From the NCBI GenBank assembly GCA_958296135.2, contig CATQHZ020000002.1, positions 1 through 64,000 on the forward strand: 64,000 nt of DNA. The letters run 5' to 3'. Within the stretch, counting starts at the first letter, position 1; the number at the start of each line of letters is the position of its first letter. The position numbers were made by a program, and so were the translations under genes. This DNA comes from an uncultured Poribacteria bacterium (GTDB lineage: Bacteria; Poribacteria; WGA-4E; WGA-3G). The notes beneath the pieces were generated by a model, which was not told the DNA's origin, ran no database searches, and saw only the letters and a list, made by a program, of their open reading frames with translations. Positions 48,453-64,000 of the stretch are shown piece by piece.

Positions 48453-48730
48453 TCCTTGCGAAGCCCTCAGCCGCACAAGTTGTGCAAGTTCGTTTAAGTC
48501 GTGGTGCAAGTTGCAGCCCTCAGCCGCACAAGTAGGGCAAGTTTTCTAAGTTTTTCCGTATCTCCCCAGCGGCTGGGATATTTTTGTGAGAGGAGCCCAC
48601 AAGCATAAGAAATTATATATTATATATTTTTTAAAAGCTATATATATACTTGCAAACTTGCACAACTTGTGCGGCTGAGGGCTCCAACTTGCTTCGAACT
48701 TGCACAACCTTTGCGCTCGAGGGCTTCGCA
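48453..48730. repeat. iteron-like inverted repeat array around an AT-rich core (origin or pac candidate 2)
   Basis: GCCCTCAGCCGCACAAGT x2 plus CAAGTT repeats, CCCCAGCGGCTGGG, AGCATAAGAAATTATATA core, then inverted ACTTGTGCGGCTGAGGG and AACTTG repeats. Confidence 0.8.
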
Positions 48731-48965
48731 GTGCTTTTTTTCATCAAAATTTCAGAGTTAACTCCAAAATCAACAGGATTTTCATTGGAGTTAACATGAT
48801 TTTGTGAAAATTTTCTCCAAAAATTTGAAAAGTTTTCATACAACGACCTGTTTTTTAACGCCCTTGATTAGACTTTGTGGCTGAGGGTCCCGACAACCTC
48901 TTTAAAAAAACATCCCCCTACAGAAAAGTGTTCCCAAATCGACGATTTTTTCAAGATATCAAGTT

Positions 48966-49370
48966 TCATTCAAAGTCGTATAACTTGAAATTTTCGTCTA
49001 ACTTGAAATTAAGATACGGCTTTGGATCAACTTCAACTAAGCCATGAAAATCATGAATTTTGGTATAACCAGGCTTGAAAAGAACTTGAACTTTTCCAAA
49101 TCCTTTTAGTTCGATAATTTTGCGATCGAGTAAGTGATTTGTAATTTGATTGTAGTCTTCTTTTTTGCGTGTTGAATCAAAATAGAAGATATCCCAGATA
49201 ATATTTTTAAGATCTATGTCTGGTTCGAATTCAATTGTTCCGTTAACAAGAGAAAAACGACCTAGATCGTCAAATCTAGCCCGCTTTCCTTCCAGTAATA
49301 CTCGTTTTAGTTGATTTGGATCAACCATTCTGTATGTGACTTTTCTATTCATTATTATAATTCCTCGCAA
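48966..49370 (-). CDS. hypothetical protein
   Basis: Co-oriented ORF. Confidence 0.6.
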   Translation of the reverse strand: MRGIIIMNRKVTYRMVDPNQLKRVLLEGKRARFDDLGRFSLVNGTIEFEPDIDLKNIIWDIFYFDSTRKKEDYNQITNHLLDRKIIELKGFGKVQVLFKPGYTKIHDFHGLVEVDPKPYLNFKLDENFKLYDFE

Positions 49371-49647
49371 ATTCTATTATTTTGTCAAATGTATCTTTAG
49401 TGAGCCAAGGTGAATTACAGCAACCGCAATTTGTTCCTTTTAATATAAGGAGAAGTTTTATTATGCCAGCAGTTTGAAGATCTGTTATCTTCAAAGATCC
49501 AGCACTTGTAACTTCATATTCTTTTTTCTGACGCTTAAGTTCAAGAATTCTTTGATCGATATTTTCAACCTTCTGCAATTCGTAATGAAAGCCGTCAATT
49601 AGTTCGTGCCAGTTATCTTCAATTTTTATAAATAGTTTCTTACTCAT
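49345..49647 (-). CDS. hypothetical protein
   Basis: AAGGAG RBS; CGCC motif. Confidence 0.6.
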   Translation of the reverse strand: MSKKLFIKIEDNWHELIDGFHYELQKVENIDQRILELKRQKKEYEVTSAGSLKITDLQTAGIIKLLLILKGTNCGCCNSPWLTKDTFDKIIEFARNYNNE

Positions 49648-49814
49648 TTTTATTTTTCTCCTTCAAGTTCTTTATCGCCTTCTTCACTTTTCTGTGATCA
49701 TAATAAGCTAATGCTGCTCCAACTAAAGAGCTAATGATACCCACTACAATAAGTATCGCAAACGACCAATAAACTAATTTTAGTGACATGATATGACCTC
49801 CATGATCCTTTGGA

Positions 49815-50060
49815 TCAATACGTATGACGTTTCATTGTTCCTTGAATACCTTGAGATTTTCTACGCTTATTTCGGCATTCTTCCCAATGAATCGCCCGTT
49901 GTAAATGATATATTACGCATTCGTTCTCGTAACATGGTAATACCTCATTCAAATATCTAACTCTATCAAGAGTTTCTTGAATTACATCTTCTACTCGAAG
50001 TCCCTTCCGTTCAACTTTATTCCAGTCAGTTAAGTTTTGTTCAGCAAGTTTTTTATTCAT
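49815..50060 (-). CDS. Tad1-like immune-signal sponge protein
   Basis: GLRVEDVIQETLDRVRYLN...PCYENECVIYHLQRAIHW...R..RR..QGIQGT matches the Tad1 C-terminal pattern G...DL....DRL..F.....REN..A.THVEEAL.W..RR...R...V.GT as I recall it. Confidence 0.7.
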   Translation of the reverse strand: MNKKLAEQNLTDWNKVERKGLRVEDVIQETLDRVRYLNEVLPCYENECVIYHLQRAIHWEECRNKRRKSQGIQGTMKRHTY

Positions 50061-50478
50061 GATTCCACTCCAAATCGCCAGCGAACGTTAATCCTAGTTC
50101 TTTAGCCCATGCACGAGCATAGTTGTCTGCTATTTGAAATACGATTTCTTTTAGAGCCTCATTATAATTATCAACATCTTCTTTTGTGACTACTGTTCGG
50201 CCCCAAAGATTGTGACCAATGAAGATCAGCTTCACATGATCTTCCGACACTTTTTCAGCTTCGGAAACATGTCTATTATATTTACGATAGAAATTTTCAT
50301 GCATTCCAACTGTAATCTCGTTCCACGCGTCCTCGAACCCCAAACACCCAATTGAAAATTCCATTGATTTCGGATCTGTCATTTCCATGAACTCGATCCC
50401 GTCCGCCAAAAGTTGGTGAGTATTACTGCTTACCCAATCTTCGTTTATAGTTGGCAGATGTATAAATAAATCTGTCAT
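50053..50478 (-). CDS. hypothetical acidic protein
   Basis: AAGGAG RBS; first gene after class M promoter copy 5. Confidence 0.65.
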   Translation of the reverse strand: MTDLFIHLPTINEDWVSSNTHQLLADGIEFMEMTDPKSMEFSIGCLGFEDAWNEITVGMHENFYRKYNRHVSEAEKVSEDHVKLIFIGHNLWGRTVVTKEDVDNYNEALKEIVFQIADNYARAWAKELGLTFAGDLEWNHE

Positions 50479-50503
50479 TATTTTGCTCCTTTTTGTTCCT
50501 TTA

Positions 50504-50544
50504 TATTATTAAAATATTAAATTTTCAAGGGCATTTAAATCCAA
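50504..50544 (-). promoter_or_regulatory. class M promoter motif, copy 5
   Basis: TATTATTAAAATATTAAATTTTCAAGGGCATTTAAATCCAA; further TTTAAATCCAA at 50584 and 50634. Confidence 0.8.
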
Positions 50545-50961
50545 ATAAATAAATATTTAATATTGAAAATATATTTCTGGTCGTTTAAATCCAAGCGACC
50601 AATATTTTTTATTGAAATGTTTTCAATTGGCGATTTAAATCCAATAAAATGTTTCATTGAAAAAAGTTGAAAAATTTGTTTGCAAAAATTTGGGATCCTG
50701 GTTTATATTATACAAGTAAATGTTTTTCGTCGGATATATCAAGATTGAATTAGATATATTGGATTGATCTCAAAAAGTTGATTTAGGATTTTTACAGGCA
50801 AATTACTAACCGGATTAGGAGTCCCACGTTTTCAAATAGGATTATAACAACATCATCAATGGCAGATGTCTGATCCAACAGCCCATGTTATTGATCTTGA
50901 TTAACATCTTGATTGTAAGGATCATAACCCTGATGGATGTTAGACAATCGATCCCTGTTAA

Positions 50962-50995
50962 CAAAAAATAAAGGACCGGAATCCGCTCCGGCCCT
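50962..50995 (-). terminator. GCGGAT-loop hairpin with U-tract closing the early gene array
   Basis: Minus strand AGGGCCGGA-GCGGAT-TCCGGTCCT-TTATTTTTT. Confidence 0.7.
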
Positions 50996-51027
50996 CTACT
51001 CTGATCGTTATGATCAATCACTCCCTG

Positions 51028-51525
51028 TTAGCAGACTATGGTCACCTCCTGATCTTCGCCGAACAACACCTCCCTGATGATCATGCCAGCCATCTCGATA
51101 TGATAGCCAACAACCTTGTCAGACTCATAATAGCAACAGGGCTTGATGATCCCTAAGAACTGAAGCTGATTGATCGCACAATCCATCGCCTGATAATAAG
51201 TCGGGAGATTCGGATCGACCTTATCATCAAAGTCCTTGATTGTATATCGACATAACCGGTTAAGATCCCGATCATCCCTGTCGGTCGCCTTGATCAACTC
51301 CTCCTCTAGTTCGCGCGGGCTGACCAGATCGGATCCTAATTTAGTCACCGCCTGGACGATATATCCCACAAGATCGGTTGGATTTTTCACATCCCTGATC
51401 CAGTGGGGGAGCTCATCTATCAATGTTGCCGCTTGATCCGCTTTGATGATCGCATTGACGATCCGCTGATCTTCGGTCACAATTATCAACTCGTTGCTCT
51501 TGTGATCAAATATTGGGGTTGTCAT
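51028..51525 (-). CDS. early protein, paralog family A (winged-helix-like C-terminus)
   Basis: AINQLQFLGII...AGMIIREVLFG..QEVTI shared with 51608, 56319, 57904 and 61426. Confidence 0.7.
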   Translation of the reverse strand: MTTPIFDHKSNELIIVTEDQRIVNAIIKADQAATLIDELPHWIRDVKNPTDLVGYIVQAVTKLGSDLVSPRELEEELIKATDRDDRDLNRLCRYTIKDFDDKVDPNLPTYYQAMDCAINQLQFLGIIKPCCYYESDKVVGYHIEMAGMIIREVLFGEDQEVTIVC

Positions 51526-51607
51526 TATATTCTCCTGTCGGACTCTAAATTTTAGGGCTTGATTGGGAGAGGATCAACATCCGCGCTGATCCCCTCCGAC
51601 ATCATGA

Positions 51608-52141
51608 TTAGGCTCTTATTGTGACCTCTTGAGCTGTCCCAAAGGACAACTCCTTGAGGACACGGCCAGCTATCAGGAGCCTGACGCCTGTCGCCTCATA
51701 TCGATAGCGATCATGGGGGACAGGATCGGATAGCTCCTCAAAATCAGTCCTGATCAACTCCTGGATATCAAGCAAGGATAGTCCGTGCAAGACAGCCTGA
51801 TCGATCGGATCATCATAGATCTGAGGTTCCTCATATAGATCCTCAAGATCTTGGGACGCCAACTGGGATAGCAGATCCATTCGACCCTGATAGCGAGCCT
51901 CAAGATCAGCCTTGATCTCATCGACGGTGACAAGATCCTGATCGCTTTGGAGGACAACGCTTGTTAGAACGTCATGGAACAGCTCCGGATTGATCATCGC
52001 AGCCACCGTTGTGGGATCTGCAACATCCTCAATGTTTTTGACATCAAACTCATCAACGCTGTTGACGGTGACGAGTCTATTGCTGTTGGGAGGGCTGATC
52101 CTCATTTGAAAGAGAGGATCAACATTGATTTGATAAGACAT
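51608..52141 (-). CDS. early protein, family A (start revised to MSYQINV)
   Basis: CAGGAG RBS before the ATG at 52141; AGRVLKELSFG..QEVTI; very acidic. Confidence 0.75.
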   Translation of the reverse strand: MSYQINVDPLFQMRISPPNSNRLVTVNSVDEFDVKNIEDVADPTTVAAMINPELFHDVLTSVVLQSDQDLVTVDEIKADLEARYQGRMDLLSQLASQDLEDLYEEPQIYDDPIDQAVLHGLSLLDIQELIRTDFEELSDPVPHDRYRYEATGVRLLIAGRVLKELSFGTAQEVTIRA

Positions 52142-52385
52142 TATATACTCCTGCTTGATTGGATCTTTATGATCCTTTATTGATTTGTTTGATCTATCAT
52201 ATGTTGGATCAATTATTTGATCCGTCAGGAGAGCGACTCCTTGCCGCCCCCCTCCTATATATAATATAGGCGATCGACCGTTGATTTCAGATCGAACATC
52301 CAATTTTTTTTGGAGCGGACATCCGATCCAGCTGATTGTGATGAGAGGACCGGATCCGCCCGATCCCCTCAACAGCTTGATGATC

Positions 52386-52721
52386 TTAAGCAAGGACATG
52401 ATCGATCCAATTATGAACCCAGCGGACATATTGACGCCGCCAGACCTCAATACGCAATCCGTAATGGTTGCCAACGGTGGGATCCTGATCATATATGCGA
52501 CGCTGGGAGTTGATCGCAGACTCAATATCAGCTCTGAGTTTGCCCATAAACAACCAGACCTCAAGATCCGATCTGAACTTGATCACATATCGCAATCTGA
52601 ACAGATCTTTTTTTAGCGACCGGCAGCCGCTTTTGATCCACTGGTTATCAGACTCTATCATCTCGGTGTGGAGCTGCTCGATCTGCTCCTCGATCGGTTT
52701 GACAACATTTTTGATCGACAT
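52386..52721 (-). CDS. early protein, family B (start revised to MSIKNVV)
   Basis: GAGGA RBS; KDLFRLRYVIKF resembles KDLSRIQYHVHV of the upstream gene. Confidence 0.65.
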   Translation of the reverse strand: MSIKNVVKPIEEQIEQLHTEMIESDNQWIKSGCRSLKKDLFRLRYVIKFRSDLEVWLFMGKLRADIESAINSQRRIYDQDPTVGNHYGLRIEVWRRQYVRWVHNWIDHVLA

Positions 52722-52837
52722 TATATAATCCTCTATTGGCTCAATTATTATTGAACCGTCTTGATTTGTGGGCAAGGGACCGGATCCGCTCCGATCCCAT
52801 CAGCCCGATTGATTTTTATTGAACAGCTTGTCTCAAT

Positions 52838-53512
52838 CTATAGATCCTCTTGTCCTGTAAGGACATCTTTGAGTCGACTTAGATCAGCAATCCGTTGGCG
52901 TTCTAGCTTCTCATCCGTCTGATCGCACTCCTTGATCCAATTGATCCGTTGATCGATAACAACGACTGCTCGATCTGCGTTCCGGTTCATATTGATGTCG
53001 GCGTACAATCTGCTTAGATCGTCAATCCGCGTCTGGACCGCCCAATCATCATAGCTGTCGGGATCTATCGCATCAAGATCCTGGATCAGCCCCTCATATC
53101 GAGCGTGGATTGCTCCAATATATTTATCGGTGAACATTTTTTTGATCTCCTCGTTGATTGTGACGACGGGACCGGATCCGCCCGATCCATCATCATCTGT
53201 TAGCAAGATCGATCTCGCCTTGTTAAGATTATCGATCCGCTCCTGTTTGTGCTCATCATCAGGGACCAGTCGCCTGATCGTCCTCAACAGTTGATCGACT
53301 CGCTCAACCGTCCTTGTCGGATTATCATCGACATGGACATGATATTGGATCCGCGACAGATCCTTGATTTGATCCCTTAGGATCCGGCATGTGAACAACG
53401 ACGGGACCGATGTTTGCTCGATCCCATCAAGATCGGTGTTGAGATCATCGATCATGACCTCAATTGCCTTATATGCTTGTCGGACATTTGGGCTAACAAA
53501 TTTGATTGTCAA
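52838..53512 (-). CDS. early protein, family B, two domains fused in frame (probable TTG start at 53512; internal RBS and ATG for MFTDKY)
   Basis: GAGGA-TAAAAAA-TTG start; linker DGSGGSGP is encoded by a GCGGAT hairpin; GAGGAG-N9-ATG inside the ORF. Confidence 0.65.
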   Translation of the reverse strand: MTIKFVSPNVRQAYKAIEVMIDDLNTDLDGIEQTSVPSLFTCRILRDQIKDLSRIQYHVHVDDNPTRTVERVDQLLRTIRRLVPDDEHKQERIDNLNKARSILLTDDDGSGGSGPVVTINEEIKKMFTDKYIGAIHARYEGLIQDLDAIDPDSYDDWAVQTRIDDLSRLYADINMNRNADRAVVVIDQRINWIKECDQTDEKLERQRIADLSRLKDVLTGQEDL

Positions 53513-53779
53513 TTTTTTATCCTCATTGATTGGATCTTTATGATCCTTTATTGATTGATCTGATCTATCATATGTTGGATCAATTATTTGATCCGTCTGG
53601 GAGCCGCTCATTGCCGCCCCCCCTCCTATATATAATATAGGCGATCGGAGCCTGATATCAGATCAGACATCCAAAAAAGTGGGATCAATTATTTGATCCA
53701 TCATTTGGGTTCAACATCTATCAGGCTGATTGTGACGAGAGGACCGGATCCGCCCGATCCCCTCAACAGCTTGATGATC

Positions 53780-54439
53780 TTAGGCATCGACCTGATAATG
53801 ATCTTTTAGGATCTGCTTGAGGCGGACTATATGATCCTCGCTGTCCTTAATTTGCTGCCGGATCATGTCCTCAACGCTCAATCCTGTTGTTTTAGCGACG
53901 ACATCATCGATTGTTGCTGTCACAACCTCTGCTGTTGCCGGTTTGACATCCTGAGCCGCGATTGGTTCAGGGACATCAACTCTGATCGCTTCGACAATCG
54001 CATGGATTGGAGCCTTGACATCAACTCTATGATCGCGAGCTTTGATCATGATGTTAAGGACCTCGACACAACGTGGAGTGCAATATCTCTCGCTGGCTTG
54101 ATCGAGCCCGCCATCAATATAGCTCCAAAGTCCGGTGACCGGATCTTTGTCGATCCAACCCCGTCCCATGCCCTTGTCACAACTCCAGATCCTTTTGACC
54201 ATCCGGAGCGGGCTGTTGGGATAGCCACCGGTCTGATTGACGACATGATCATGAACCGGATCGGTTAGCTGCTGCATATCATGGAGCAGATCGCGGAGAG
54301 CAATCGGGCTCCCGTCGCTCGGCATGGACGCCAACATTGCGATATGGACTGTCATCCGCTCTGTTGTTCTGCCGAGGATCAGCAGATCGCTATTATTGAG
54401 GACCGGAGACGCATTGGGTTCAAACATTTGATTGTTCAA
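53780..54439 (-). CDS. early protein, family C (winged-helix-like domain plus C-terminal coiled coil)
   Basis: GRGWID...GLWS and TTGLSVEDMIRQQI..S.D.I.RL.QILK.HYQ shared with 54655. Confidence 0.7.
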   Translation of the reverse strand: MNNQMFEPNASPVLNNSDLLILGRTTERMTVHIAMLASMPSDGSPIALRDLLHDMQQLTDPVHDHVVNQTGGYPNSPLRMVKRIWSCDKGMGRGWIDKDPVTGLWSYIDGGLDQASERYCTPRCVEVLNIMIKARDHRVDVKAPIHAIVEAIRVDVPEPIAAQDVKPATAEVVTATIDDVVAKTTGLSVEDMIRQQIKDSEDHIVRLKQILKDHYQVDA

Positions 54440-54654
54440 TTTATTTCTCCTGTTGGATCTTATGATCCGTCTTGATTGAGTTGATCAATCATATTATTTT
54501 GGGGAGCCAACCCATCGTCGGCTCCTATATATAATATAACGCATTTGGCCTTGATATCAGATCAGACATCCAAAAAATTTTGGCTTTAGACATCCAACCA
54601 ATTTGATGTTGGGAGGGGACCGGCATCCGCGCTGATCCCCTCCGGCTGTTGATT

Positions 54655-55230
54655 TTAAGCAACATCCTGATAATGATTTTTTAAGATCTGCTCCAGTCGA
54701 TCAATATAATCATGCGAGCTTTGGATCTGCTGCCTGATTATAGACTCTAGACTCAGATCTGTTGTCGCCTTGACATCAGGCTTGACCTCTTTGTCCACAA
54801 CAATCGGATCAATGACCTCATCCTGCTCTTGATCGCTATCATTTTGATCCTTGACTTTGTTAAGGACATCCATAAATTGCTCCAGATCCACACCATGATA
54901 GCCCAAATTGCTTTCAACATAGCGTCGGATCTCAACAATGGACGCATCGGTCGCAATCCAGCGGCCAGATTGACATTTGATCCACTGTTTTGCGGACGAC
55001 CACACGGATGTGATCCCAGCGAACTGGTTCTTAGATTTATATTGAGTTTCAAGGAGGTGATTGATCGGGATCAACAGCTCCTGGATAGCAGTCCATATAT
55101 CAGATCTGAACGCTTGATTATCATTATTGATCATGATGTCCAAAGCAACAGCCTGCATCGCGGGACCGATCTTGGTGTGATTTAAGATCATCACATCGTC
55201 GGTTGTCAAAACTCTTTCAGGTGCGAACAT
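54655..55230 (-). CDS. early protein, family C
   Basis: TTDLSLESIIRQQIQSSHDYIDRLEQILKNHYQ; WI...SGRWIAT wing-like segment. Confidence 0.7.
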   Translation of the reverse strand: MFAPERVLTTDDVMILNHTKIGPAMQAVALDIMINNDNQAFRSDIWTAIQELLIPINHLLETQYKSKNQFAGITSVWSSAKQWIKCQSGRWIATDASIVEIRRYVESNLGYHGVDLEQFMDVLNKVKDQNDSDQEQDEVIDPIVVDKEVKPDVKATTDLSLESIIRQQIQSSHDYIDRLEQILKNHYQDVA

Positions 55231-55321
55231 TTTATATACTCCATTAGCGGATAACTTACGCTATCCTATTTGATTGCGATGGGAGGACCGGCATCCGCGC
55301 CAGCCCTCCATCCGGTTAGCA

Positions 55322-55693
55322 TTAAATATCAATTTCGCCTGTCAATATTTCAACAACATAGCGCAGATCCGCCTCAAGATCCGGATATTGACCGTCATCC
55401 GTCCAGCGGCTATAGACGACGCTGATCAGCCTGATTGTCTTGACGCGATCCTTATAGACTGTCAAATGACTCAAGACGCGGCTCAGGACCTCAACCCGAT
55501 CGGTTAGCCGATCATAGACGCCCATCTGTTTGACCGTCATATCATCGATGTTGTCCGTCATGGGTTCCAGCTCGTCCTCGATCTGTTCCAATTGAGTGAT
55601 CATCGCACCGATGGCGAAGTCGACTCTAACGACAGGATCTTGTTGATCGATCAGATCCAAGATCGGCGTTTGATCTATCTTTGCGGTTGTCAT
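55322..55693 (-). CDS. early protein, family B
   Basis: DQT.ILD...Q.D...RVD.AI...LSRVL...YKD..KT...QYPDL..D..YV..ILTG shared with 55887. Confidence 0.75.
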   Translation of the reverse strand: MTTAKIDQTPILDLIDQQDPVVRVDFAIGAMITQLEQIEDELEPMTDNIDDMTVKQMGVYDRLTDRVEVLSRVLSHLTVYKDRVKTIRLISVVYSRWTDDGQYPDLEADLRYVVEILTGEIDI

Positions 55694-55886
55694 TTTTATT
55701 TATCCCCTTGTTGAGTTGATCCAAACAATTATTGGGAGCCGCTCATTGCCGCCCCCTCCTATATATAATATAACGCATTTGGCCTTGTTATCAGATCAGA
55801 CATCCAAAAAATTTTGGATCCAGACATCCGACAGCCTGATCGGTTGGGAGAGGACCGGCATCCGCGCCGATCCCCTCAACTGATTA

Positions 55887-56252
55887 TTAAATAATTTCAA
55901 AATTGCCTGTCAATATATCTCTGACATAATTGATGTCGAACACCAGATCCGGATATTGATCCTCCCAAAATCCGTAGGTTGTATCAATCATCTTGACGGT
56001 TTTATCAGGATCCTTATAGATCCTAATATAATTCAAGACTCGACTCAACATCTCAATCAGAGCTGTTTGAGCGTCTAGCGACCGTTGTAATCCTAGAGTC
56101 ATATCAGGATGCTTGTCGACAAACACCTCCAGATCGTTCTCTCTTTCCTCTAATGTTGGCTCTAACGTTCTGATGGCGAGATCGACTCTAAATTCCGCAT
56201 CTGTTTGCTCAAGCCGATCCAATATTGTTGTTTGATCTAATCTGACTGTCAT
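55887..56252 (-). CDS. early protein, family B
   Basis: Tandem paralog of 55322-55693. Confidence 0.75.
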   Translation of the reverse strand: MTVRLDQTTILDRLEQTDAEFRVDLAIRTLEPTLEERENDLEVFVDKHPDMTLGLQRSLDAQTALIEMLSRVLNYIRIYKDPDKTVKMIDTTYGFWEDQYPDLVFDINYVRDILTGNFEII

Positions 56253-56318
56253 TTTTTATTTATCCTTATTGATTGTGGACAAGGGACCGGATCCGCTCCG
56301 ATCCCTATCCGGTTATTA

Positions 56319-56846
56319 TTAAGCATCCACGCCACGGTTGGCTCTAACGGTCGCCATATGATCGCTCCCAAACGCCAACTCCTTGAGGACTCTGCCCACA
56401 AGAGTCAGCTTATATTGGGCTTGATCAAGTTCGCAAGTCGGATCAACCTCATTGATTAGATTTATATCAACAAGCTGCTCCAGAGTGGATCCAATCGACT
56501 CCTCGATAACTCGCTCCATCATTGGGATGTCAAAAATATCGACCACCCGATCTAAGCTGTCAATCAGAGCCTCCTGATCGTCAAGATCAAGCCGTCCAAA
56601 CCGAGCCTCGACATCCGCGTCGATCTCGTCACGGCTAACAGGATCCTGATCGCTTTGGGCAATCGATCCCAGAACGATCTCATAAAGATCCTCTTGATTG
56701 CGAAGGGACTCAACACTCATGGGAGTGCAGACATCCTCAATATCCTCGATGTCGCTGACATCCAGATCTGTGACCGTAATATATCGACCTTGATCTGCGA
56801 TGACGACTGTCCTTGTCTCATTTTTGCGATCAAATTTGATTGCCAT
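56319..56846 (-). CDS. early protein, family A (start revised to MAIKFD)
   Basis: IEDV..P...QSDQD.V..DEI.AD.EAR and GRVLKELAFG shared with 51608; highly acidic. Confidence 0.75.
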   Translation of the reverse strand: MAIKFDRKNETRTVVIADQGRYITVTDLDVSDIEDIEDVCTPMSVESLRNQEDLYEIVLGSIAQSDQDPVSRDEIDADVEARFGRLDLDDQEALIDSLDRVVDIFDIPMMERVIEESIGSTLEQLVDINLINEVDPTCELDQAQYKLTLVGRVLKELAFGSDHMATVRANRGVDA

Positions 56847-57062
56847 TATATACTCCATCTTGATTTGTTTGATCCAATCATCTCAATTTGGGAGCCAACC
56901 CATCGTCGGCTCCTATATATAATATAACGCATTTGGCCCTGTTATCAGATCAGACATCCAAAAAAGTGGGATCAATTATTTGATCCATCATTTGGGTTCT
57001 GACATCCGACAGCCTGATTGTCTTGGAGAGGACCGGATCCGCCCGATCCCCTCCGATCATTG

Positions 57063-57581
57063 TTATTCAGATGCATACTTTGATATGATCTGCTCCAACT
57101 GCGTAAAGAGTTGATCAATCCTCTTTTTAGATTTCTCCATAGGACTGCCAGTACTGTCAATAACATCAACGGTTGATAGATCCTCTACTTCTTTTGTGAC
57201 AATTTCTTCAACAACATCGTTGTTATTATATCCATAATCGATGTTATCAAAGAACATCAACCCAAGATCGAAATCCGCTTCAATCTTAGCCTGTTCGATT
57301 GCTCCATCATTGAATGATAGCATGCCGTTAATACCATCGGTTTGACGATCGAGCCAACCCCTGCCGTTCCCATTATCATATCCATAGAACTGAGCAAGCG
57401 ATCCGATCCGATCGATCATACGACCAGTCAACGTGTTGTCGACTATCAACAGCTCCAGATTTGAATCTAAAACCGACTCGATTTCTCTCATCAATTCGCA
57501 CTTGCGGCGAACGCCATCCCGCTCTAGGATAGCGATCCATAACCACTTGGCGGCGTCTCTTTCTCTAACACGGATTGTCAT
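57063..57581 (-). CDS. early protein, distant family C member
   Basis: GNGRGWLDR...GMLSF.DG versus GMGRGWIDK...GLWSY.DG; C-terminal ..LEQII.KY. Confidence 0.65.
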   Translation of the reverse strand: MTIRVRERDAAKWLWIAILERDGVRRKCELMREIESVLDSNLELLIVDNTLTGRMIDRIGSLAQFYGYDNGNGRGWLDRQTDGINGMLSFNDGAIEQAKIEADFDLGLMFFDNIDYGYNNNDVVEEIVTKEVEDLSTVDVIDSTGSPMEKSKKRIDQLFTQLEQIISKYASE

Positions 57582-57727
57582 TTTTTATTTATCCTCTTGT
57601 TGCGTTGATCCAATCATCTCAATTTGGGAACCAACCCATCGTCGGCTCCTATATATAATATAACGCATTTGGCCCTGTTATCAGATCGGACAACCAAAAA
57701 ATTTTGGTTCCGACATCCATCAGGACC

Positions 57728-57826
57728 TCAGACCTCATAACCGAGCAGATAAAGAAATATGCTCACAATGATAATGAAAGTCAAATAGATCCCGATATTC
57801 ATTAACAATCTTTTATATGTGTCCAT
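57728..57826 (-). CDS. 32-aa single-TM peptide (not in ORF track)
   Basis: MDTYKRLLMNIGIYLTFIIIVSIFLYLLGYEV, preceded by AAAGGT. Confidence 0.5.
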   Translation of the reverse strand: MDTYKRLLMNIGIYLTFIIIVSIFLYLLGYEV

Positions 57827-57903
57827 AAAATCAACCTTTGATATGTCTCCATATGAACAAGAAAGGAGAGCTAGCATCCGCGCCAGCCCTCCTAACATCA
57901 ATC

Positions 57904-58332
57904 CTAGTTGTCAAACAGCAAATCCAATATGATGTGGCCAACCTTTGTCGGCTTGACTCCTTGTTTATTACAACGATGGATGACTCCCATAAGTATCATA
58001 TCATGGACGACATCATAAAACGCTCGATCGAACGCGCTTCTCCTTCGAACCTTGATATCTTGATCATCATCAGGCTGATATGGTTCAAACGATCTGGCGG
58101 TATAATGCTTTAGATCAGATATATGGATCCAATCAAGAGGTCCAAGTTGACTCAACTCCTCACATAGATGGCGTCGGAGCCTCAGATCCTTGAAATCCTT
58201 AAGGACCTCCACGTTGCATAAATATTGCAAATCATTGAACTGATCATCCGTCAATCCGCTGGCGGTGACCGTTTTGACATTATCATTGATTGTGATGGTT
58301 ATCGCTACGCTATGTTCAAATTGGACATCCAT
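57904..58332 (-). CDS. early protein, distant family A member (start revised to MDVQFE)
   Basis: GGAGGT RBS; MILMGVI...PTKVGHIILDLLFD. Confidence 0.6.
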   Translation of the reverse strand: MDVQFEHSVAITITINDNVKTVTASGLTDDQFNDLQYLCNVEVLKDFKDLRLRRHLCEELSQLGPLDWIHISDLKHYTARSFEPYQPDDDQDIKVRRRSAFDRAFYDVVHDMILMGVIHRCNKQGVKPTKVGHIILDLLFDN

Positions 58333-58333
58333 G

Positions 58334-58522
58334 CTATTGAACCTCCGATCCATCAAAGCTGGCTTGAAAGCGGATCAAAACCAGCTTGAGTTGTTCTTCA
58401 AAAACATCCTGCTCGGCCTCTATCATATCAGACCAATGATCATGCTCCGGAACCCAGTCCTCAGGGCTTACATCAAGCTCCTGATTAGTCTCCACGTTAT
58501 CGGTTAACAATGCGGCTTTCAT
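58334..58522 (-). CDS. small acidic protein
   Basis: AAGGAG RBS; D/E-rich. Confidence 0.6.
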   Translation of the reverse strand: MKAALLTDNVETNQELDVSPEDWVPEHDHWSDMIEAEQDVFEEQLKLVLIRFQASFDGSEVQ

Positions 58523-58536
58523 ATTGTTCTCCTTGC

Positions 58537-58662
58537 CTATCTATTTATGTTGGATCTAAAAATCTGAGCAAAGACTCCAACTCCAATTACCATGATTTTG
58601 AACCCAACAGGAGCCTCTTGAAAGAGAAAGATTGCGATGGCGGCTGCTAAAGCTACAAACAT
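58537..58662 (-). CDS. 41-aa hydrophobic peptide (not in ORF track)
   Basis: GGAGGA RBS; MFVALAAAIAIFLFQEAPVGFKIMVIGVGVFAQIFRSNINR. Confidence 0.55.
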   Translation of the reverse strand: MFVALAAAIAIFLFQEAPVGFKIMVIGVGVFAQIFRSNINR

Positions 58663-58744
58663 TGATTGATCCTCCAAAAAGACAGGTGGGGACCAAAGCC
58701 CCCACCTTGATTATGAGACATCCGCGTCTCATTAATGTTTGCAA

Positions 58745-59377
58745 CTAAGAGACCTGTTCTGCAACAACAGCCTTGACTCGTCCACGCCCATTCCGCTGGA
58801 CGCCAGACTCTTTCAAGTGAGCATTGATCGTCGCGGAGTTGATCCCTTTAAGCTCACCAATGGCGGATCCGCTCATTCCCTTTTCGGTGTGCAGATGACG
58901 CCATTCAGCCTTGTCATCATCGCTATGCTTCCGACGGTTGTTGCTCTTAGTCGGCAACAGCTTGACCGCATCCTCCCTCAACTTATCGAGTCCAGGAACA
59001 TCTGTCCCTCGCTCCTGAGCAAGGACACTCTTAACGATGTTGTCTTTGACGATCAGCCCCTTGAACTTGCCGTGGATCTTGAACGGGATAAGCTTAAGAT
59101 CCATGTTGTCGTTGACAAATTTTTCGTGGATGAACTTAACGACATCCGCTGCCAGCTCGACCTTGCGTCCACGAGCCTTCGGTTTGAGCAAGACAGCTGC
59201 CGACTCGGCGTTGAGCGGAGCAATCCATGTTTGCTTGTCCTCTTTCAACTTGAGGACCTTATTAAGTTCCGCCTGAACGTTGGCGGGGCTATCAGTCTCG
59301 GTGTTGAGTTCAATCGATCCGGCGGCAACGGTTCCGGCATCCGTCTGTTTGTAAAGATCAAATTTATATGCGGACAT
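58745..59377 (-). CDS. early protein, family D, C-terminal HTH (start revised to MSAYKF)
   Basis: AAGGAG RBS; SDDDKAEWRHLH..GMSG.AIG...GINSATINAHLK HTH. Confidence 0.75.
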   Translation of the reverse strand: MSAYKFDLYKQTDAGTVAAGSIELNTETDSPANVQAELNKVLKLKEDKQTWIAPLNAESAAVLLKPKARGRKVELAADVVKFIHEKFVNDNMDLKLIPFKIHGKFKGLIVKDNIVKSVLAQERGTDVPGLDKLREDAVKLLPTKSNNRRKHSDDDKAEWRHLHTEKGMSGSAIGELKGINSATINAHLKESGVQRNGRGRVKAVVAEQVS

Positions 59378-59597
59378 TATATAATCTCCTTGACGGCCTG
59401 ACACAATCAAGCCATAAATTAAAATTACAATCAATTTTTATAGGAGCCAACCCATCGTCGGCTCCTATATATAATATAGCCGACTCTTTGTTGTTATCAG
59501 ATCGGACAACCGATAAATTTTCGCTTTGGACAACCAACCGACCTTGGAGAGCTGACATCCGCGCCAGCTCTCCAATAATCGACATCCTGTCCTGATC

Positions 59598-60248
59598 TTA
59601 ATAATTATCAAGATCGCACTCCATCCATGCTTTGGGATTGAGCCTGCAAACTTGATTATATTTCGCATAAACAGCTTTGAGGAGTCCAACAACACCAATA
59701 ACGGTTTGCGGATCAACATTATGTTTTTGTGCGACCGGTTCAACCCATGCGGTATCGCCTTTTGCAGTCCGGAACCAAGAGTCCGGCGTCTGGTGAGCAA
59801 GGAACGACCGCCAGATATAATGGACCATAAAATCAATCAGCGGATATTCGACATAAACCCGATTGACATTTGCGATCCTGAACGGATGACTCATTTCGCC
59901 GCCGGCAGCCATGACTTGATCCAGATCAGGATCAGCCCACAACTCGCCCAGAAAGCCTTCAACATCGACCATTGGGATATCGATTACAATCCCGTTGGCC
60001 TCATTAATGACTTCAAGTTCGCAGAACTTAACGCTGACATCCATAGGATCGATCCCATAATCATCAACGATTTCGCCAAAGCCATCAAAGACTCCATTGA
60101 ACTCCATCCGGTTATCGGGCAACGCCAACCGACGGGGGAACCCAACCATAACCGAGAGCTTGTCGCTTGTCGCTTCAAAGACCTCGATTTTGGGAGTCAA
60201 TCTATAAGGAGGGACGATATCAACACCTTCAATCAAATTGCTTAACAT
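59598..60248 (-). CDS. hypothetical early protein (start revised to MLSNLI)
   Basis: TAGGAG RBS downstream of a class E promoter. Confidence 0.7.
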   Translation of the reverse strand: MLSNLIEGVDIVPPYRLTPKIEVFEATSDKLSVMVGFPRRLALPDNRMEFNGVFDGFGEIVDDYGIDPMDVSVKFCELEVINEANGIVIDIPMVDVEGFLGELWADPDLDQVMAAGGEMSHPFRIANVNRVYVEYPLIDFMVHYIWRSFLAHQTPDSWFRTAKGDTAWVEPVAQKHNVDPQTVIGVVGLLKAVYAKYNQVCRLNPKAWMECDLDNY

Positions 60249-60431
60249 TATATTGTCTCCTAAATTTACAATCATCCATAATTGGGAGCCAACCCATCGT
60301 CGGCTCCATATATATAATATAACGCATTTGGCCTTGTTATCAGATCGGACAACCAAAAAATTTTGGCTCCGACATCCAACCGGTGGGGACGAGCCGACAT
60401 CCGCGCCAGCTCGTCCTTTATTGTCATCCGG

Positions 60432-61058
60432 TTATGCATTTGTGACAACAGCCTTGACTCGTCCACGCCCATTCCGCTGGACGCCAGACTCTTTCAAGTG
60501 AGCATTGATCGTCGCGGAGTTGATTCCAAGCTCCTTACCGATCCTGAAGCCACTCCAACCGTCTTCGGTGTGCATGCGACGCCATTCAGCCTTGTCATCA
60601 TCGCTATACTTCCGACGATTGTTGCTCTGAGCCGGCAACAGCTTGACCGCTTGCTCCCTCAACTCATCGATGCCAGCAACATCCGTTCCACGTTCCTGAG
60701 CAAGGACACTCTTAACGATGTTGTCCTTAACCAACAGGCCCTCGAACTTATTATGAACCTTAAAGGGGATTACTTTAAGATCCACATTGTCGTTGACAAA
60801 TTTTTCGTGGATGAACTTAACGACATCCGGTTCCAGCTCGACTTTGCGTCCACCGACCTTCGGTTTGAGCAAAACTGCTGCTGTCTCGACGTTGAGTGCA
60901 GCAACATGATACTTTTTGTTCTTGTTCAGCTCGATCATATCATTAACAGCCGCCTGAACGATGGCGGGGCTATGAGTCTCGGTGCTAAGATCAACAGATC
61001 CGGCTGCGACCACTCCATCATCGTTGCGCTCATAAAGATCATATTTGACGGTTAACAT
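60432..61058 (-). CDS. early protein, family D (close paralog of 58745-59377)
   Basis: Long near-identical stretches, e.g. DVVKFIHEKFVNDN, VKDNIVKSVLAQERGTDV, GINSATINAHLKESGVQRNGRGRVKAVV. Confidence 0.75.
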   Translation of the reverse strand: MLTVKYDLYERNDDGVVAAGSVDLSTETHSPAIVQAAVNDMIELNKNKKYHVAALNVETAAVLLKPKVGGRKVELEPDVVKFIHEKFVNDNVDLKVIPFKVHNKFEGLLVKDNIVKSVLAQERGTDVAGIDELREQAVKLLPAQSNNRRKYSDDDKAEWRRMHTEDGWSGFRIGKELGINSATINAHLKESGVQRNGRGRVKAVVTNA

Positions 61059-61231
61059 TTTAAATGTCTCCTTGACGACTTGACGCATCAAGCCATAAAT
61101 TAAAATTACAATCAATTTTTATAGGAGCCAACCCATCGTCGGCTCCTATATATAATATAGCCGACTCTTTGTTGTTATCAGATCGGACAACCGATAAATT
61201 TTCGCCCAAGACAACCAACCGACTGTGCGGT

Positions 61232-61321
61232 TTATTTTTTATCGCTGTTGCCAAGTACTACTATCCATATTGTTATTATATTCGCCATTACAGCGATTAA
61301 CATAAGATCTATGTTATCCAT
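61232..61321 (-). CDS. 29-aa single-TM peptide (not in ORF track)
   Basis: GGGAGGG RBS; MDNIDLMLIAVMANIITIWIVVLGNSDKK. Confidence 0.5.
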   Translation of the reverse strand: MDNIDLMLIAVMANIITIWIVVLGNSDKK

Positions 61322-61425
61322 TTGATCATCCCTCCCTGATTGTGACTAATGGGACTGGATCCGCCCAACCCCATCAGCCCGTTCGCTCCATAAGATCCGA
61401 TCTAATGGATCAGATCTGATACGAT

Positions 61426-62058
61426 CTAATAGATATCTGTGATACCTTTAAGATCGAATACAATTGCCATCAGGACTCGTCCCGCCTTTGTGACAGAGAC
61501 TGCTCTTAGTTCTGTGTCATCCTGAACGCGGAGTCCATCAAAGAGCTGTTCCATGATAAACTGATCCATAAGGCTCCAGAACTGATATCCGACCACGTCT
61601 GGCATATGATCAATCTCGTCTGGACTCATTTGACCATCATCAAGGATGGCTTCCGCAGCCAATCCCCTCAGATTGTGTTGATCATCCTCATCATGACTCC
61701 AAACCAACTGGTTCAAGATATCTTGAGGGGTGACCACAATATTTTGATCAAATTCAACCGAGGATAGCAGAGCCTCTTCAAACTCAGACTCCCAAACTCC
61801 ATCGGGGTTGTCATCGATCATGCGTTTCATAGCAGCGACCGATATGTTAACGATCCGAGCTGCGTCCAAGACCTCATGATTGAAGCTGTTAACACGCCAC
61901 CGATCGGTTTTGGCAACATCTTCAACAAGATAATCTAAATATGTCCTTTCAACGGGATTGACATTGTGAACAACAACGGTTTTGATCGATCCATCATTGT
62001 TCTCGATTTTGATTTCAACACCCTGTCGCTCTTTGATCGACACATTTTTGATCGACAT
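61426..62058 (-). CDS. early protein, distant family A member (start revised to MSIKNVS)
   Basis: GAGGAG RBS; C-terminal VTKAGRVLMAIVFD; acidic. Confidence 0.65.
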   Translation of the reverse strand: MSIKNVSIKERQGVEIKIENNDGSIKTVVVHNVNPVERTYLDYLVEDVAKTDRWRVNSFNHEVLDAARIVNISVAAMKRMIDDNPDGVWESEFEEALLSSVEFDQNIVVTPQDILNQLVWSHDEDDQHNLRGLAAEAILDDGQMSPDEIDHMPDVVGYQFWSLMDQFIMEQLFDGLRVQDDTELRAVSVTKAGRVLMAIVFDLKGITDIY

Positions 62059-62250
62059 TTTATATCTCCTCTTAATTGTCACAATCAATCAATTATTTGG
62101 GAGCCAACCCATCGTCGGCTCCATATATATAATATAGCCGACTCTTTGTTGTTATCAGATCAGACAACCGATAAATTTTCGCTTTGGACAACCAACCGAC
62201 CGTGAAGGGCTGACATCCGCGTCGGCCCTCCAATTTAGATCAAGATCTTG

Positions 62251-62661
62251 TTAATCCAATTTGTTTATGATATATTCAAGATCATCTTTTGTTATATTGT
62301 CTTTTCCAGATTTCTCCACGCCATCCAATCTGTTTTCAATATAATAGATCAACTCAGAACGAACATCCATCAGAGTCTCATAAAGCTTATCTTTAGCCTC
62401 GTTAAGCTTCTCCATAACAACGGCTTCCTCAAGCTCATACCACTCGATTGCGTCTGCCAACGTCGGCAGTTCCCAGACATCTGTTCTAGTGATATCGCAT
62501 ACAATCTCAGCCGCTTGTTTTGGACCATAATCAGCGTCCTGAGCCAACGGCGATTCAGGCTCCGCAAGAACCTCAATTGCTTGATGTTCCGCAACGATTT
62601 CATTATACTCTTGTTCAATCAACGCAACGTTGTATACTTCCTTATGAACTTGGCTTATCAT
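62251..62661 (-). CDS. acidic helical early protein (start revised to MISQVH)
   Basis: GGAGGAG RBS; start overlaps the upstream stop (TAATG). Confidence 0.65.
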   Translation of the reverse strand: MISQVHKEVYNVALIEQEYNEIVAEHQAIEVLAEPESPLAQDADYGPKQAAEIVCDITRTDVWELPTLADAIEWYELEEAVVMEKLNEAKDKLYETLMDVRSELIYYIENRLDGVEKSGKDNITKDDLEYIINKLD

Positions 62662-63056
62662 TATACTCCTCCCAAAAAGATGGTTGCCAACCAATCGACA
62701 ACTTTGATTGTGACATATGCTATTGTCGCCAAACCAATTACGGCTAGGCAGCCAGAACAACCATCATTATCATCATCGTCGTCGTCATCATTATTGTCAA
62801 CTTTTACTTTCAATTTGACGGTTGTATTTGTTCTAAGCACTTTGAGTGTGGTGACAAACGCCGCCTCGATAGCTTCAACATCATCAGGATCATGATCATC
62901 ATAGACTTCCTCAAAGATGTCCATAAAATCAGATCCAATATTTTCATAAACATCAGTTTGATCATCCGCGATCACGAACCTGAGTTCATAAGCTAATTCC
63001 TTTGGATCTACTCTATCGTCACCATTTAGATATGCGAACAAATTATACTTGATCAT
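62661..63056 (-). CDS. acidic early protein with poly-Asp linker and C-terminal TM helix
   Basis: GGAG RBS before MIKYNL; DNNDDDDDDDND then a hydrophobic tail. Confidence 0.65.
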   Translation of the reverse strand: MIKYNLFAYLNGDDRVDPKELAYELRFVIADDQTDVYENIGSDFMDIFEEVYDDHDPDDVEAIEAAFVTTLKVLRTNTTVKLKVKVDNNDDDDDDDNDGCSGCLAVIGLATIAYVTIKVVDWLATIFLGGV

Positions 63057-63189
63057 TTTATGGTCTCCAATAACATTAAATTTACAATCATTTTTTATAG
63101 GAACCAACCCAGCGTTGGCTCCTATATATAATATAGCCGACTCTTTGCTGTTATCAGATCAGACAACCGATAAATTTTTCGCTTGGCGA

Positions 63190-63540
63190 TCAATCCGACC
63201 GATTTGTTTTGACATCTGGGTTAAGTTCGATCATATGATTTACCCAGTTTACAAGTTCATCAATATCGGTTTTGGGTTCATATAAACTTTCGCTGATCTC
63301 CATATATGTCCATATGAATTTCTCCATAAGGTTACCCTGCGGATTTGGTCTTATGTTCTTTAATGTCCACAAATATAACCGGTATGGCATCCATTTAATC
63401 ATATGGCGAAACCGGTTACCAAACCGTGGTTCTTCAGACCCTTTCAACAAATTGCGGGAATCATTAAAAACTTTCCACTCTTCGATATCGATCAACGCTG
63501 CTCCATAATCTTCTTCAAGACTGTCTTTTAATTCAATCAT
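63190..63540 (-). CDS. hypothetical protein
   Basis: AAGGAG RBS. Confidence 0.6.
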   Translation of the reverse strand: MIELKDSLEEDYGAALIDIEEWKVFNDSRNLLKGSEEPRFGNRFRHMIKWMPYRLYLWTLKNIRPNPQGNLMEKFIWTYMEISESLYEPKTDIDELVNWVNHMIELNPDVKTNRSD

Positions 63541-63551
63541 GATAGCTCCTT

Positions 63552-63998
63552 TTAACTGAAGATGATATCTTCATTTAAGTCCATATCATATGCTGCGAAC
63601 CGCATCTTGAGACAAGCTCGTTCAAAGATGTTAGTTATAGCGGCATTTGTATATGGTTTTTTGGTTAATTCTTGATCAGCAAGTTCTGCAGCAACCTCAG
63701 ATCCACTCAGATTACCGAGAAATCCTCTATTGTAATTCAGGACGACAAATCTCTCCATATCATCTAGATTGACGAGGAGGCTATCAAACAGATCTTTATA
63801 TTCAACTTCTGCGATATAGTCTCGCGCTCCGGTGAGCAAATTCGATCCATCGTCAGGAATTGTGTCCATAACCTCCGCATAATCAAATTCATCATCATTG
63901 ATAACTTGATTTAACGAAGATGTGTGCCTAATTTCAAGCATTGCTATTTCGGGAGCCTCTAACATTGTTGTTATGCCAATATCATACTCTTCAGATCT
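63552..63998 (-). CDS. sigma70-family factor, region 4-like C-terminus (5' end outside the window)
   Basis: LLVNLDDMERFVV...LSGSEVAAEL...TNAAITNIFERACLKMR; the frame stays open to the window edge. Confidence 0.6.
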   Translation of the reverse strand, partial: RSEEYDIGITTMLEAPEIAMLEIRHTSSLNQVINDDEFDYAEVMDTIPDDGSNLLTGARDYIAEVEYKDLFDSLLVNLDDMERFVVLNYNRGFLGNLSGSEVAAELADQELTKKPYTNAAITNIFERACLKMRFAAYDMDLNEDIIFS

Positions 63999-64000
63999 AA

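Follow-up and report, generated by a model that had tools for sequence, protein, structure and literature searches.

What role could one six-base loop, GCGGAU, carried on dissimilar stems, have after most genes of a single array? The question is raised by the window, as the whole stretch of 64,000 nucleotides analysed here is called, which makes up the first 64 kb of a contig of 143,886 bp (CATQHZ020000002.1, 36.8% G+C; here C2) in an assembly of an uncultured Poribacteria bacterium (GCA_958296135.2) that also holds a 5.01-Mb chromosome (54.4% G+C; here C1) and two small contigs. Judged by its genes, the 143.9-kb contig is a tailed phage. The original prediction, drawn from the letters of the window, described 17 intercistronic RNA hairpins with covarying stems and an invariant GCGGAU loop, and proposed a CsrA-type sponge, an antitermination signal or a processing and stability signal. 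Our answer is a tentative one (probability roughly 0.42): the hairpins would be cistron-end RNA modules of a multi-promoter early (host-takeover) array, and their loop would be read by a putative factor that governs 3'-end formation or stability.

A fixed hexaloop on variable stems

The window contains the hexamer GCGGAT 58 times where 23.1 occurrences are expected (standard deviation 5.0), a 2.5-fold excess equalled in none of 100 shuffles, and the surplus sits on the minus strand, clustered at 50981-62220. Seventeen of these sites are the loops of strong sense-strand hairpins on the minus strand between 50968 and 62233. Folded as 42-mers, all 17 form one hairpin that presents the hexamer as its loop (as a GCGGA pentaloop in two), with minimum free energies of -8.9 to -25.9 kcal/mol and z-scores of -2.0 to -6.2; 16 of the 17 are stable, G+C-rich hairpins at -17.4 to -25.9 kcal/mol. 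In an alignment of the 17 copies anchored on the loop, which has 32 columns and no gaps, all six loop columns are invariant as against none of the 26 others (0/24 in the stem), such that 102 of 102 loop bases are unchanged and stems and flanks have diverged. Number, fold and loop invariance were thus as the original prediction had them.

Covariation of the stems was likewise borne out: over 12 pairs, 89.7% of 204 cells are paired compared with 65.4% after shuffling, both sides change in 11 of the 12 pairs, and the covariation score of 0.805 (0.338 shuffled) was reached by 0 of 500 shuffles, while sliding the partner by 1-3 columns lowers pairing to 36-57%. True compensatory exchanges are present, the fourth pair from the loop being U·G, C-G, U-A or A-U and the fifth taking six different pair types; part of the double changes reflects a register shift by one extra C-G pair beside the loop. 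The closing pair varies as well (C-G in nine copies, G-C in five, A-U in one, unpaired in two), and a closing pair that flips next to a fixed loop argues for recognition of the loop rather than for a special stability motif of closing pair and loop. That the stems differ greatly proved correct in that 15 distinct 11-bp stems occur, the three quoted as examples being present at 52354, 58720 and 59557; the statement is too strong, however, in that three copies (52341..52372, 53737 and 57026) share an identical 28-mer and the arms are compositionally biased, G-rich on the 5' side and C/U-rich on the 3' side. Contiguous stems measure 7-17 bp, mostly 11-13 bp.

A covariance model of the 17 copies, which had been suggested as a check, was run over the 143.9-kb contig; it recovered all 17 and no variant-loop member, adding just two weak intragenic matches that both carry GCGGAT (18.3 and 13.7 bits), and we therefore do not regard loop invariance as an artefact of searching by loop. 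These results support sequence constraint on the loop and pairing constraint alone on the stems. Separately, a coding-sequence hairpin near 53417 (minus strand) has family-like arms (tgatgggatcga / tcggtcccgtcg) and the loop GCAAACA; the covariance model did not report it, and it may be a decayed family copy or a product of chance. Two further ideas were dropped, namely a start codon in the loop (GCGG-AUG), found in just nine of 17 copies, and mimicry of the 16S rRNA 3' helix, which one stem type resembles in part when compared by eye but the other stem types do not. Curated Rfam covariance models applied to 48000-64000 at E <= 1 placed no family on the hairpins, and their sole match there, a sub-threshold plant microRNA at 48505-48693 (41 bits against a cut-off of 85), is surely spurious.

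The original prediction took the G-U pairs as a sign of RNA structure, in agreement with an independent count in which 169 of 187 cells are paired, 29 of them as G·U. Owing to these pairs the sense strand folds better than the antisense (in 15 of 17 copies; mean -21.8 versus -15.4 kcal/mol) and the fold is strand-specific; the element belongs to the sense strand and is most simply an RNA structure. It might instead act as single-stranded DNA, the loop serving as a nicking, priming or recombination site as at HUH-endonuclease origins, attC sites or REP elements. Rolling-circle origins classically combine an unchanging loop with variable stems, G·T pairs are tolerated in DNA hairpins, and the cassettes described below look mobile. 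The phage contig, however, has no match to the Y1 transposase family (PF01797), both matches in the assembly being chromosomal, and Pfam scans of the phage proteins revealed no integrase or Rep family; the position of the hairpins, which in the copies read by eye begin about 8-15 nt past the stop codon, and their confinement to one gene array fit a transcript signal better. We regard the DNA-level role as the least probable of the explanations weighed here.

The 17 hairpins are listed from the last transcribed to the first, with covariance-model bits, free energy (kcal/mol) and z, loop starts being in plus-strand coordinates; three related features follow. Open reading frames are abbreviated ORFs.

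50968..50999 (loop 50981), minus strand: last hairpin transcribed, stem runs into a U-tract; 36.7 bits; -23.1, z -5.9
51566..51597 (loop 51579), minus strand: after ORF 52141-51608, before promoter-less ORF 51525-51028; 35.5 bits; -23.0, z -4.5
52341..52372 (loop 52354), minus strand: after ORF 52721-52386, then cassette 52268; 39.4 bits; -22.1, z -3.9
52771..52802 (loop 52784), minus strand: after the 224-aa ORF, before promoter-less ORF 52721-52386; 29.3 bits; -25.0, z -4.1
53163..53194 (loop 53176), minus strand: within ORF 53521-52838, in frame as DGSGGSGPV; 28.1 bits
53735..53766 (loop 53748), minus strand: after ORF 54439-53780, then cassette 53639; 37.5 bits; -20.9, z -3.5
54612..54643 (loop 54625), minus strand: after ORF 55230-54655, then cassette 54538; 36.2 bits; -23.1, z -3.1
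55280..55311 (loop 55293), minus strand: after ORF 55693-55322, before promoter-less ORF 55230-54655; 38.4 bits; -24.8, z -2.7
55847..55878 (loop 55860), minus strand: after ORF 56252-55887, then cassette 55772; 39.4 bits; -22.7, z -3.5
56278..56309 (loop 56291), minus strand: after ORF 56858-56319, before promoter-less ORF 56252-55887; 29.5 bits; -23.4, z -4.6
57024..57055 (loop 57037), minus strand: after ORF 57581-57063, then small U-tract hairpin 56986-56969 and cassette 56926; 38.2 bits; -23.3, z -3.2
57863..57894 (loop 57876), minus strand: after ORF 58332-57904, U-rich tail, then 32-aa hydrophobic ORF and cassette 57662; 35.8 bits; -22.5, z -4.3
58707..58738 (loop 58720), minus strand: weakest hairpin, 7-bp stem, after ORF 59377-58745; 28.5 bits; -8.9, z -2.0
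59544..59575 (loop 59557), minus strand: after ORF 60248-59598, then cassette 59478; 39.3 bits; -25.9, z -6.2
60386..60417 (loop 60399), minus strand: after ORF 61058-60432, then cassette 60321; 39.2 bits; -22.8, z -4.8
61346..61377 (loop 61359), minus strand: after ORF 62058-61426, then 29-aa hydrophobic ORF and cassette 61159; 33.5 bits; -21.9, z -4.7
62202..62233 (loop 62215), minus strand: after ORF 62661-62251 (first of the array), then cassette 62136; 38.6 bits; -17.4, z -2.6
58684..58707, minus strand: separate terminator-like hairpin with U-tract, canonical in form, directly after hairpin 58720
57260..57291, minus strand: possible 18th copy with AU-rich stem in ORF 57581-57063, which may be a chance match; 18.3 bits, E 0.053
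56600-56630: weak intragenic covariance-model match with GCGGAT; 13.7 bits

Cistron ends, promoter-like cassettes and the gene array

Of 20 ORFs called from 62661 to 51028, 16 have a GCGGAU hairpin after them, and the description of the copies as intercistronic holds for most but fails for 53176, which is read in frame inside an ORF. There the hairpin translates as a Gly/Ser linker, DGSGGSGPV, joining the halves of a 224-aa protein (ORF 53521-52838). Two metagenomic homologues of this protein (72% and 65% identical) both keep the DGSGGS segment with its flanks, and both have D where the window has G, in the 3' arm of the hairpin; this establishes conservation of the in-frame arrangement, but not an RNA structure.

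A U-tract had been credited to the last hairpin only. Hairpin 50981 does have one, and because its stem runs straight into that tract it is probably the terminator of the array; the word "only" did not stand, in that 57876 also has a U-rich tail and is the one GCGGAU hairpin of 17 flagged by a consensus terminator scan, and a separate hairpin with a U-tract stands after 58720. The other 15 tails have at most three T in their first eight bases and are C/A-rich, often CACAAUCA. The absence of a U-rich tail from these 15 supports the predicted view that most GCGGAU hairpins are not ordinary intrinsic terminators. Three of the family are followed by a separate small U-tract hairpin, and the canonical terminators of the phage with hairpin and U-tract (48252-48217, 58707-58684 and hairpins at 30098 and 14895) carry loops other than GCGGAU.

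Seven hairpins precede an ORF that has a Shine-Dalgarno sequence and no cassette, and read-through is therefore needed there; together with the copy inside an ORF these make about eight, in keeping with the "at least eight" promoter-less genes foreseen. Three of the seven ORFs are just 29-41 codons long and hydrophobic:

61321-61232: 29 codons, Shine-Dalgarno sequence, just downstream of a GCGGAU hairpin, in an A/T-richer island
58662-58537: 41 codons, likewise
57826-57728: 32 codons, likewise

From the tails without U-tract, the separate U-tract terminators and the ORFs that depend on read-through, we infer that the hairpin acts other than, or beyond, stopping polymerase. One such action would be antitermination of nut/boxB or LoaP type, in which the loop recruits a phage factor and polymerase then resists downstream terminators, including Rho. 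Loop-specific hairpins on nascent RNA are a known loading route for antitermination factors, GCGGA would fit the G-N-R-N-A pattern, the host has Rho, and the seven read-through sites would be accounted for. The explanation is nevertheless improbable, given 17 sites at cistron 3' ends instead of one promoter-proximal site per operon, eight hairpins that directly precede a fresh promoter, the lack of any NusG-like or N-like family in Pfam scans of phage proteins, and the fact that no conserved boxA-like partner was seen, none having been searched for.

Beyond what had been predicted, the hairpins are one half of a composite hairpin-promoter cassette system, in which a conserved 5' stem-loop stands at the start of each unit. 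Fifteen near-identical cassettes of about 80 nt lie on the contig, 11 of them in the window at 63135-52268. Each consists of an A/T-rich upstream stretch and CTGATA-N16-TATATT, which agrees with the sigma70 consensus at 9 of 12 positions in the nine cassettes that the scan lists. A stem-loop (GGAGCC...GGCUCC or a G-rich variant) follows the cassette in just the 11 copies of the window and would sit at or beside the start of the RNA; for the four representatives folded, the free energy is -15.7 to -22.2 kcal/mol and z is -3.6 to -8.0. On account of the consensus match and the gene content (small ORFs without a Pfam or meaningful PHROG family), we infer that the cassettes serve as promoters of an early region. 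The cassettes are as follows:

63099..63180 (63135), minus strand: cassette with 5' stem-loop; CTGATA-N16-TATATT, A/T-rich upstream stretch
62100..62181 (62136), minus strand: cassette with 5' stem-loop
61123..61204 (61159), minus strand: cassette with 5' stem-loop
60285..60366 (60321), minus strand: cassette with 5' stem-loop
59442..59523 (59478), minus strand: cassette with 5' stem-loop; -22.2 kcal/mol, z -8.0
57626..57707 (57662), minus strand: cassette with 5' stem-loop
56890..56971 (56926), minus strand: cassette with 5' stem-loop
55736..55817 (55772), minus strand: cassette with variant 5' stem-loop
54502..54583 (54538), minus strand: cassette with 5' stem-loop
53603..53684 (53639), minus strand: cassette with variant 5' stem-loop
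52232..52313 (52268), minus strand: cassette with variant 5' stem-loop
C2 64678, 66468, 80400 and 83884, outside the window: near-identical cassettes with no strong 5' stem-loop after them

Eight of the 17 hairpins run straight into a cassette, the distance from loop to -10 element being 78-111 nt; beside these and the seven before promoter-less ORFs there remain 53176, within its ORF, and 50981, which runs into its U-tract. Up to three hairpins occur per promoter unit, all after ORFs. The hairpin stretch is compositionally distinct (41-47% G+C in 2-kb bins, the bins elsewhere in the window ranging from 31 to 45%), and the genes that follow cassettes further upstream (66.4-62.7 kb) have no GCGGAU hairpin. 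The array ORFs fall into several old paralogous families, and four paralogues of about 200 aa with a helix-turn-helix-like character are spread through the array. Paralogous genes with 86% DNA identity carry unlike hairpins, and 91%-identical hairpin blocks are common to unrelated genes; the hairpin modules move independently of the genes.

Such movement is the starting point of the highest-ranked rival, by which the hairpins would be generic weak terminators or 3' stabilisers spread with the promoter cassette by recombination, their loop identity arising from copying, gene conversion or a favourable fold, and no factor would be involved. The fixed hairpin-promoter composite in eight of 17 copies, the mosaic blocks with three identical copies, and the few host gene-end hairpins that share the loop (one a canonical terminator; 6 of 1022 strong hexaloop hairpins) are all in its favour, as are two precedents: promoter-early stem-loop (PeSL) cassettes, composites of the same kind among ORFan early genes according to passages of PMC2839356 and PMC4122927, and the variable stems with fixed CUUCGG of phage T4 noted in part of PMC8948821. 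Against it stand the contrast between 102 unchanged loop bases of 102 and no invariant column among the 26 others, a closing pair that is not fixed, unlike the C-G of CUUCGG, the use of other loops by the other terminators of the phage, the absence of a U-tract from 15 of 17 copies, and the conservation of the stem rather than the loop in PeSLs, as a passage of PMC4122927 has it. With this balance the rival is unlikely, and the reading with a loop-specific factor is preferred.

A putative reader of the loop in phage and host

The preference has a simple basis: protection of RNA ends alone needs no fixed loop, yet the loop is frozen at 102 of 102 bases on diverged stems with a flipping closing pair. 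Pairing kept by compensatory change around six frozen loop bases is the signature of a specific RNA-protein contact. In the favoured scheme, each transcription unit would start at a near-identical sigma70-like cassette and its RNA would begin with a strong 5' stem-loop; after the ORF, the GCGGAU hairpin would form in the mRNA, giving the upstream cistron a protected 3' end and presenting the hexaloop to a sequence-specific trans-acting factor, which may be an early protein of the phage or else an RNase or termination factor of the host. Binding of that factor would decide whether the transcript ends or is cut at the hairpin or reads on into the next cistron, which would bring about 3'-end formation (by processing or assisted termination) or decay control at each cistron end, while a U-tract would be supplied just at the array's end, where transcription has to stop completely. 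With a 5' stem-loop at the start and a hairpin after the ORFs, the units look protected at both ends. A bolder proposal, which we hold to be doubtful, is that of a dedicated RNA punctuation in which a putative phage or host protein reads GCGGAU on every early cistron and, by its presence, switches the U-tract-less hairpins between 3'-end formation and read-through; at its boldest, the array would also be a high-copy decoy draining that host factor from its own mRNAs.

The phage contig encodes terminase, portal, major head protein and tape-measure protein, together with Hsp70/DnaK, a DnaJ-domain protein, DNA polymerase III alpha and beta, ribonucleotide reductase, RecJ and several DNA methylases, and 163 of 178 crude ORF calls lie on the minus strand. 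A sigma70-family protein is encoded at C2 66558-67454 and a second sigma-like protein at 64595-63552, just upstream of the hairpin array, the two being 28% identical over 227 aa. Neither the 48-69 kb region nor the whole phage contig gave a blastn match to the chromosome or the two small contigs, and a host origin of the cassettes was accordingly rejected.

The CsrA/RsmA sponge of the original prediction did not survive. PF02599 has no match in any frame of the genome (94.7% complete, phage contig included), although E. coli, B. subtilis and T. maritima controls were positive, and the loop, GCGGAU in 17 of 17, contains GGA but has G rather than A two positions before it and so lacks the A of ANGGA; as CsrA is encoded nowhere in the genome, the idea is unsupported and was rejected. 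A decoy for some other host RNA-binding protein, be it a regulator, an RNase or a defence sensor titrated by 17 loops per array, would profit from the high copy number on RNAs from 11 strong-looking promoters and from the handful of host gene-end hairpins with the same loop. The absence of CsrA itself, the small number of those host hairpins and the unrelatedness of the genes before them, host CRISPR repeats unlike the hairpin and the lack of a candidate host protein weigh against it, and it ranks as quite improbable, below antitermination and above the DNA-level role.

The host search that had been called for found 13 chromosomal hairpins with a GCGGAU loop and a stem of at least 7 bp, and by number of strong hexaloop hairpins in the host (6/1022) the loop comes about 18th; the covariance model gave four weak matches on the chromosome. 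Gene-end examples are as follows:

C1 3777204-3777235, 385990-386021, 251319-251342, 3205646, 1877523 and 1878391: host gene-end hairpins with a GCGGAU loop

Among the host hairpins there is one canonical U-tract terminator, and two represent the same repeat. With that rank and with unrelated preceding genes, a widespread host motif was rejected. Many dispersed REP-like short repeats also occur on C1, as do three CRISPR arrays (3642843-3645579, 3819950-3821165 and 4396603-4401217) of 38, 19-20 and 70-72 repeats. A CRISPR-repeat mimic (an RNA anti-CRISPR) was rejected, the repeats of all three arrays being unrelated to the hairpin, and so was CRISPR targeting of the phage: none of the 127 host spacers matches the phage contig beyond 19 nt with two mismatches. 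The host uses Shine-Dalgarno sequences, and its genome has 14 matches to the type-IX-secretion sorting domain, which gave none in the control genomes.

The other half of the proposed search, for relatives, yielded no hairpin-bearing DNA. Megablast against phages returned no relative; tblastn of the terminase reached at most 28.0% among listed GenBank phages and 28.8% among plasmids, tblastn of the capsid protein against phages and plasmids had no match, and none of the host family's 111 other genomes encodes the capsid protein. Scans with the terminase and with paralogue alignments gave no close relative and metagenome matches of only 28-31% identity. In IMG/VR, the hairpin pattern had one chance match, in a 70% G+C contig, and the 17-nt promoter core occurred in 117 stretches, with a single match in each of the 80 listed; among the matches listed, no fetched stretch had a GCGGAT hairpin whose stem reached 6 bp. 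The 38-nt cassette pattern was found in 0 viral contigs and 0 genome contigs. Terminase proteins 78-96% identical are present in ENA metagenome assemblies, however, and close relatives therefore exist.

Several points weigh against a loop-specific factor acting on early mRNAs. The 17 copies are paralogous repeats that exchange sequence within one genome, not independent samples; conservation was judged from these copies; and gene conversion could help to keep the loop uniform. G·T pairs form in single-stranded DNA too, such that a DNA-level role on this strand might also fit the structure, and with all genes on one strand the direction of transcription is inseparable from that of the replication fork. 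Most array ORFs are ORFans encoding very acidic proteins (isoelectric points of 4.1-4.7), neither Pfam nor PHROGs named an RNA-binding domain in the phage ORFs scanned, and the four sequencing runs that hold the stretch come from one sample, with no RNA run listed. As for the array proteins in general, they have no Pfam family and only weak PHROGs matches (E > 1e-4); a protein atlas offered nothing usable for a basic 111-aa ORF and weak helix-turn-helix leads for the 210-aa family.

Other features of the phage stand apart from the hairpins. A gene set for synthesis of preQ0 (7-deazaguanine), comprising a QueD-like PTPS, GTP cyclohydrolase I, QueC and a radical-SAM QueE-like protein, and at least five DNA methylase genes are present on the contig, and together the two suggest modified phage DNA. 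A methylase of the D12 (Dam-like) class is encoded by the phage, and GATC is extremely dense in window positions 50900-64000 and on to C2 66500, with 128 sites in 52-56 kb; over 50.9-66.5 kb it reaches 5.6x the base-composition expectation, compared with 2.0x in the rest of the phage and a strongly depleted 0.34x in the host chromosome, and within the array it is equally dense in coding DNA, mostly in the codon phases GAT-C and G-ATC. Between a helix-turn-helix regulator gene and the array lie tandem and inverted repeats that may represent an operator region or an origin. Two giant ORFs complete the picture, the larger with nine He_PIG Ig-like repeats.

L001:9046-9795, L002:16705-17256, L002:19012-19692 and L003:5438-6142 (contig C2): preQ0 gene set
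48505-48740 of the window: tandem and inverted repeats
L005:876-15839 = 125876-140839 (contig C2): ORF of 4987 aa
L004:4091-10864 = 119091-125864 (contig C2): ORF of 2257 aa

Comparison with known systems

Hairpins that recur between the early genes of phages are commonly classed as terminators and pursued no further; among the papers listed by text searches of the literature, none described the present GCGGAU family. The present case concerns a phage lineage for which the collections searched contain no cultured relative, and its host lacks CsrA. Were the factor real, phage early expression would have a new regulator acting after transcription or at termination, and factor and hairpin together would make a compact, portable pair for synthetic operon control; if the punctuation proposal is true, it would time or balance about twenty host-takeover genes from eleven identical promoters. 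If there is no factor, the PeSL idea of mobile terminator/promoter cassettes would extend beyond T4-type phages.

Among systems in which a loop is read, CsrB/RsmZ sponges resemble the array in their multiple hairpins with GGA in the loop and differ in that here there is no CsrA gene, no A of ANGGA, and sites within mRNAs instead of a dedicated small RNA. In boxB/nut of lambdoid phages and in LoaP leader hairpins, it is the loop sequence and not the stem that is read by a transcription factor; those elements, however, occur once per operon near the promoter, whereas 17 stand at cistron ends here, and Pfam scans found no cognate protein. The RNase III sites of T7 are similar as intercistronic hairpins punctuating a polycistronic early RNA, and the yeast RNase III Rnt1p reads a conserved loop. 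T7 sites, however, span about two helical turns, or about 20 bp of duplex, and the stems here span 7-17 bp, mostly 11-13.

The CUUCGG hairpins of T4 are nearer in sequence pattern. As related in part of PMC8948821, which cites Tuerk 1988, they are numerous and intergenic, with variable, G·U-tolerant stems and a fixed six-base core. That core, a UUCG tetraloop with the C-G pair that closes it, is put down to exceptional stability. Intergenic position, variable stems and six fixed bases are shared with the present family, but here all six bases are loop, the closing pair varies instead of being a fixed C-G, and the other terminators of the phage use loops different from GCGGAU.

Finally, the closest known system is that of the PeSL cassettes of T4-type phages, described in passages of PMC2839356 and PMC4122927 as a stem-loop plus a conserved sigma70-like promoter between small ORFan early genes, the stem being conserved (G-run, loop, C-run, or with A/T runs) and termination having been shown. 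The array shares with them a repeated hairpin-promoter composite among ORFan genes and its mosaic, recombining blocks; it departs from them in that the loop is invariant and the stems vary, 15 of 17 hairpins lack a U-tract, nine of 17 have no promoter directly after them, and the phage is unrelated, no listed GenBank phage having a terminase closer than 28.0% identity. The GCGGAU array thus combines the architecture of PeSLs with a T4-like pattern of variable stems and six fixed bases, and differs from both.

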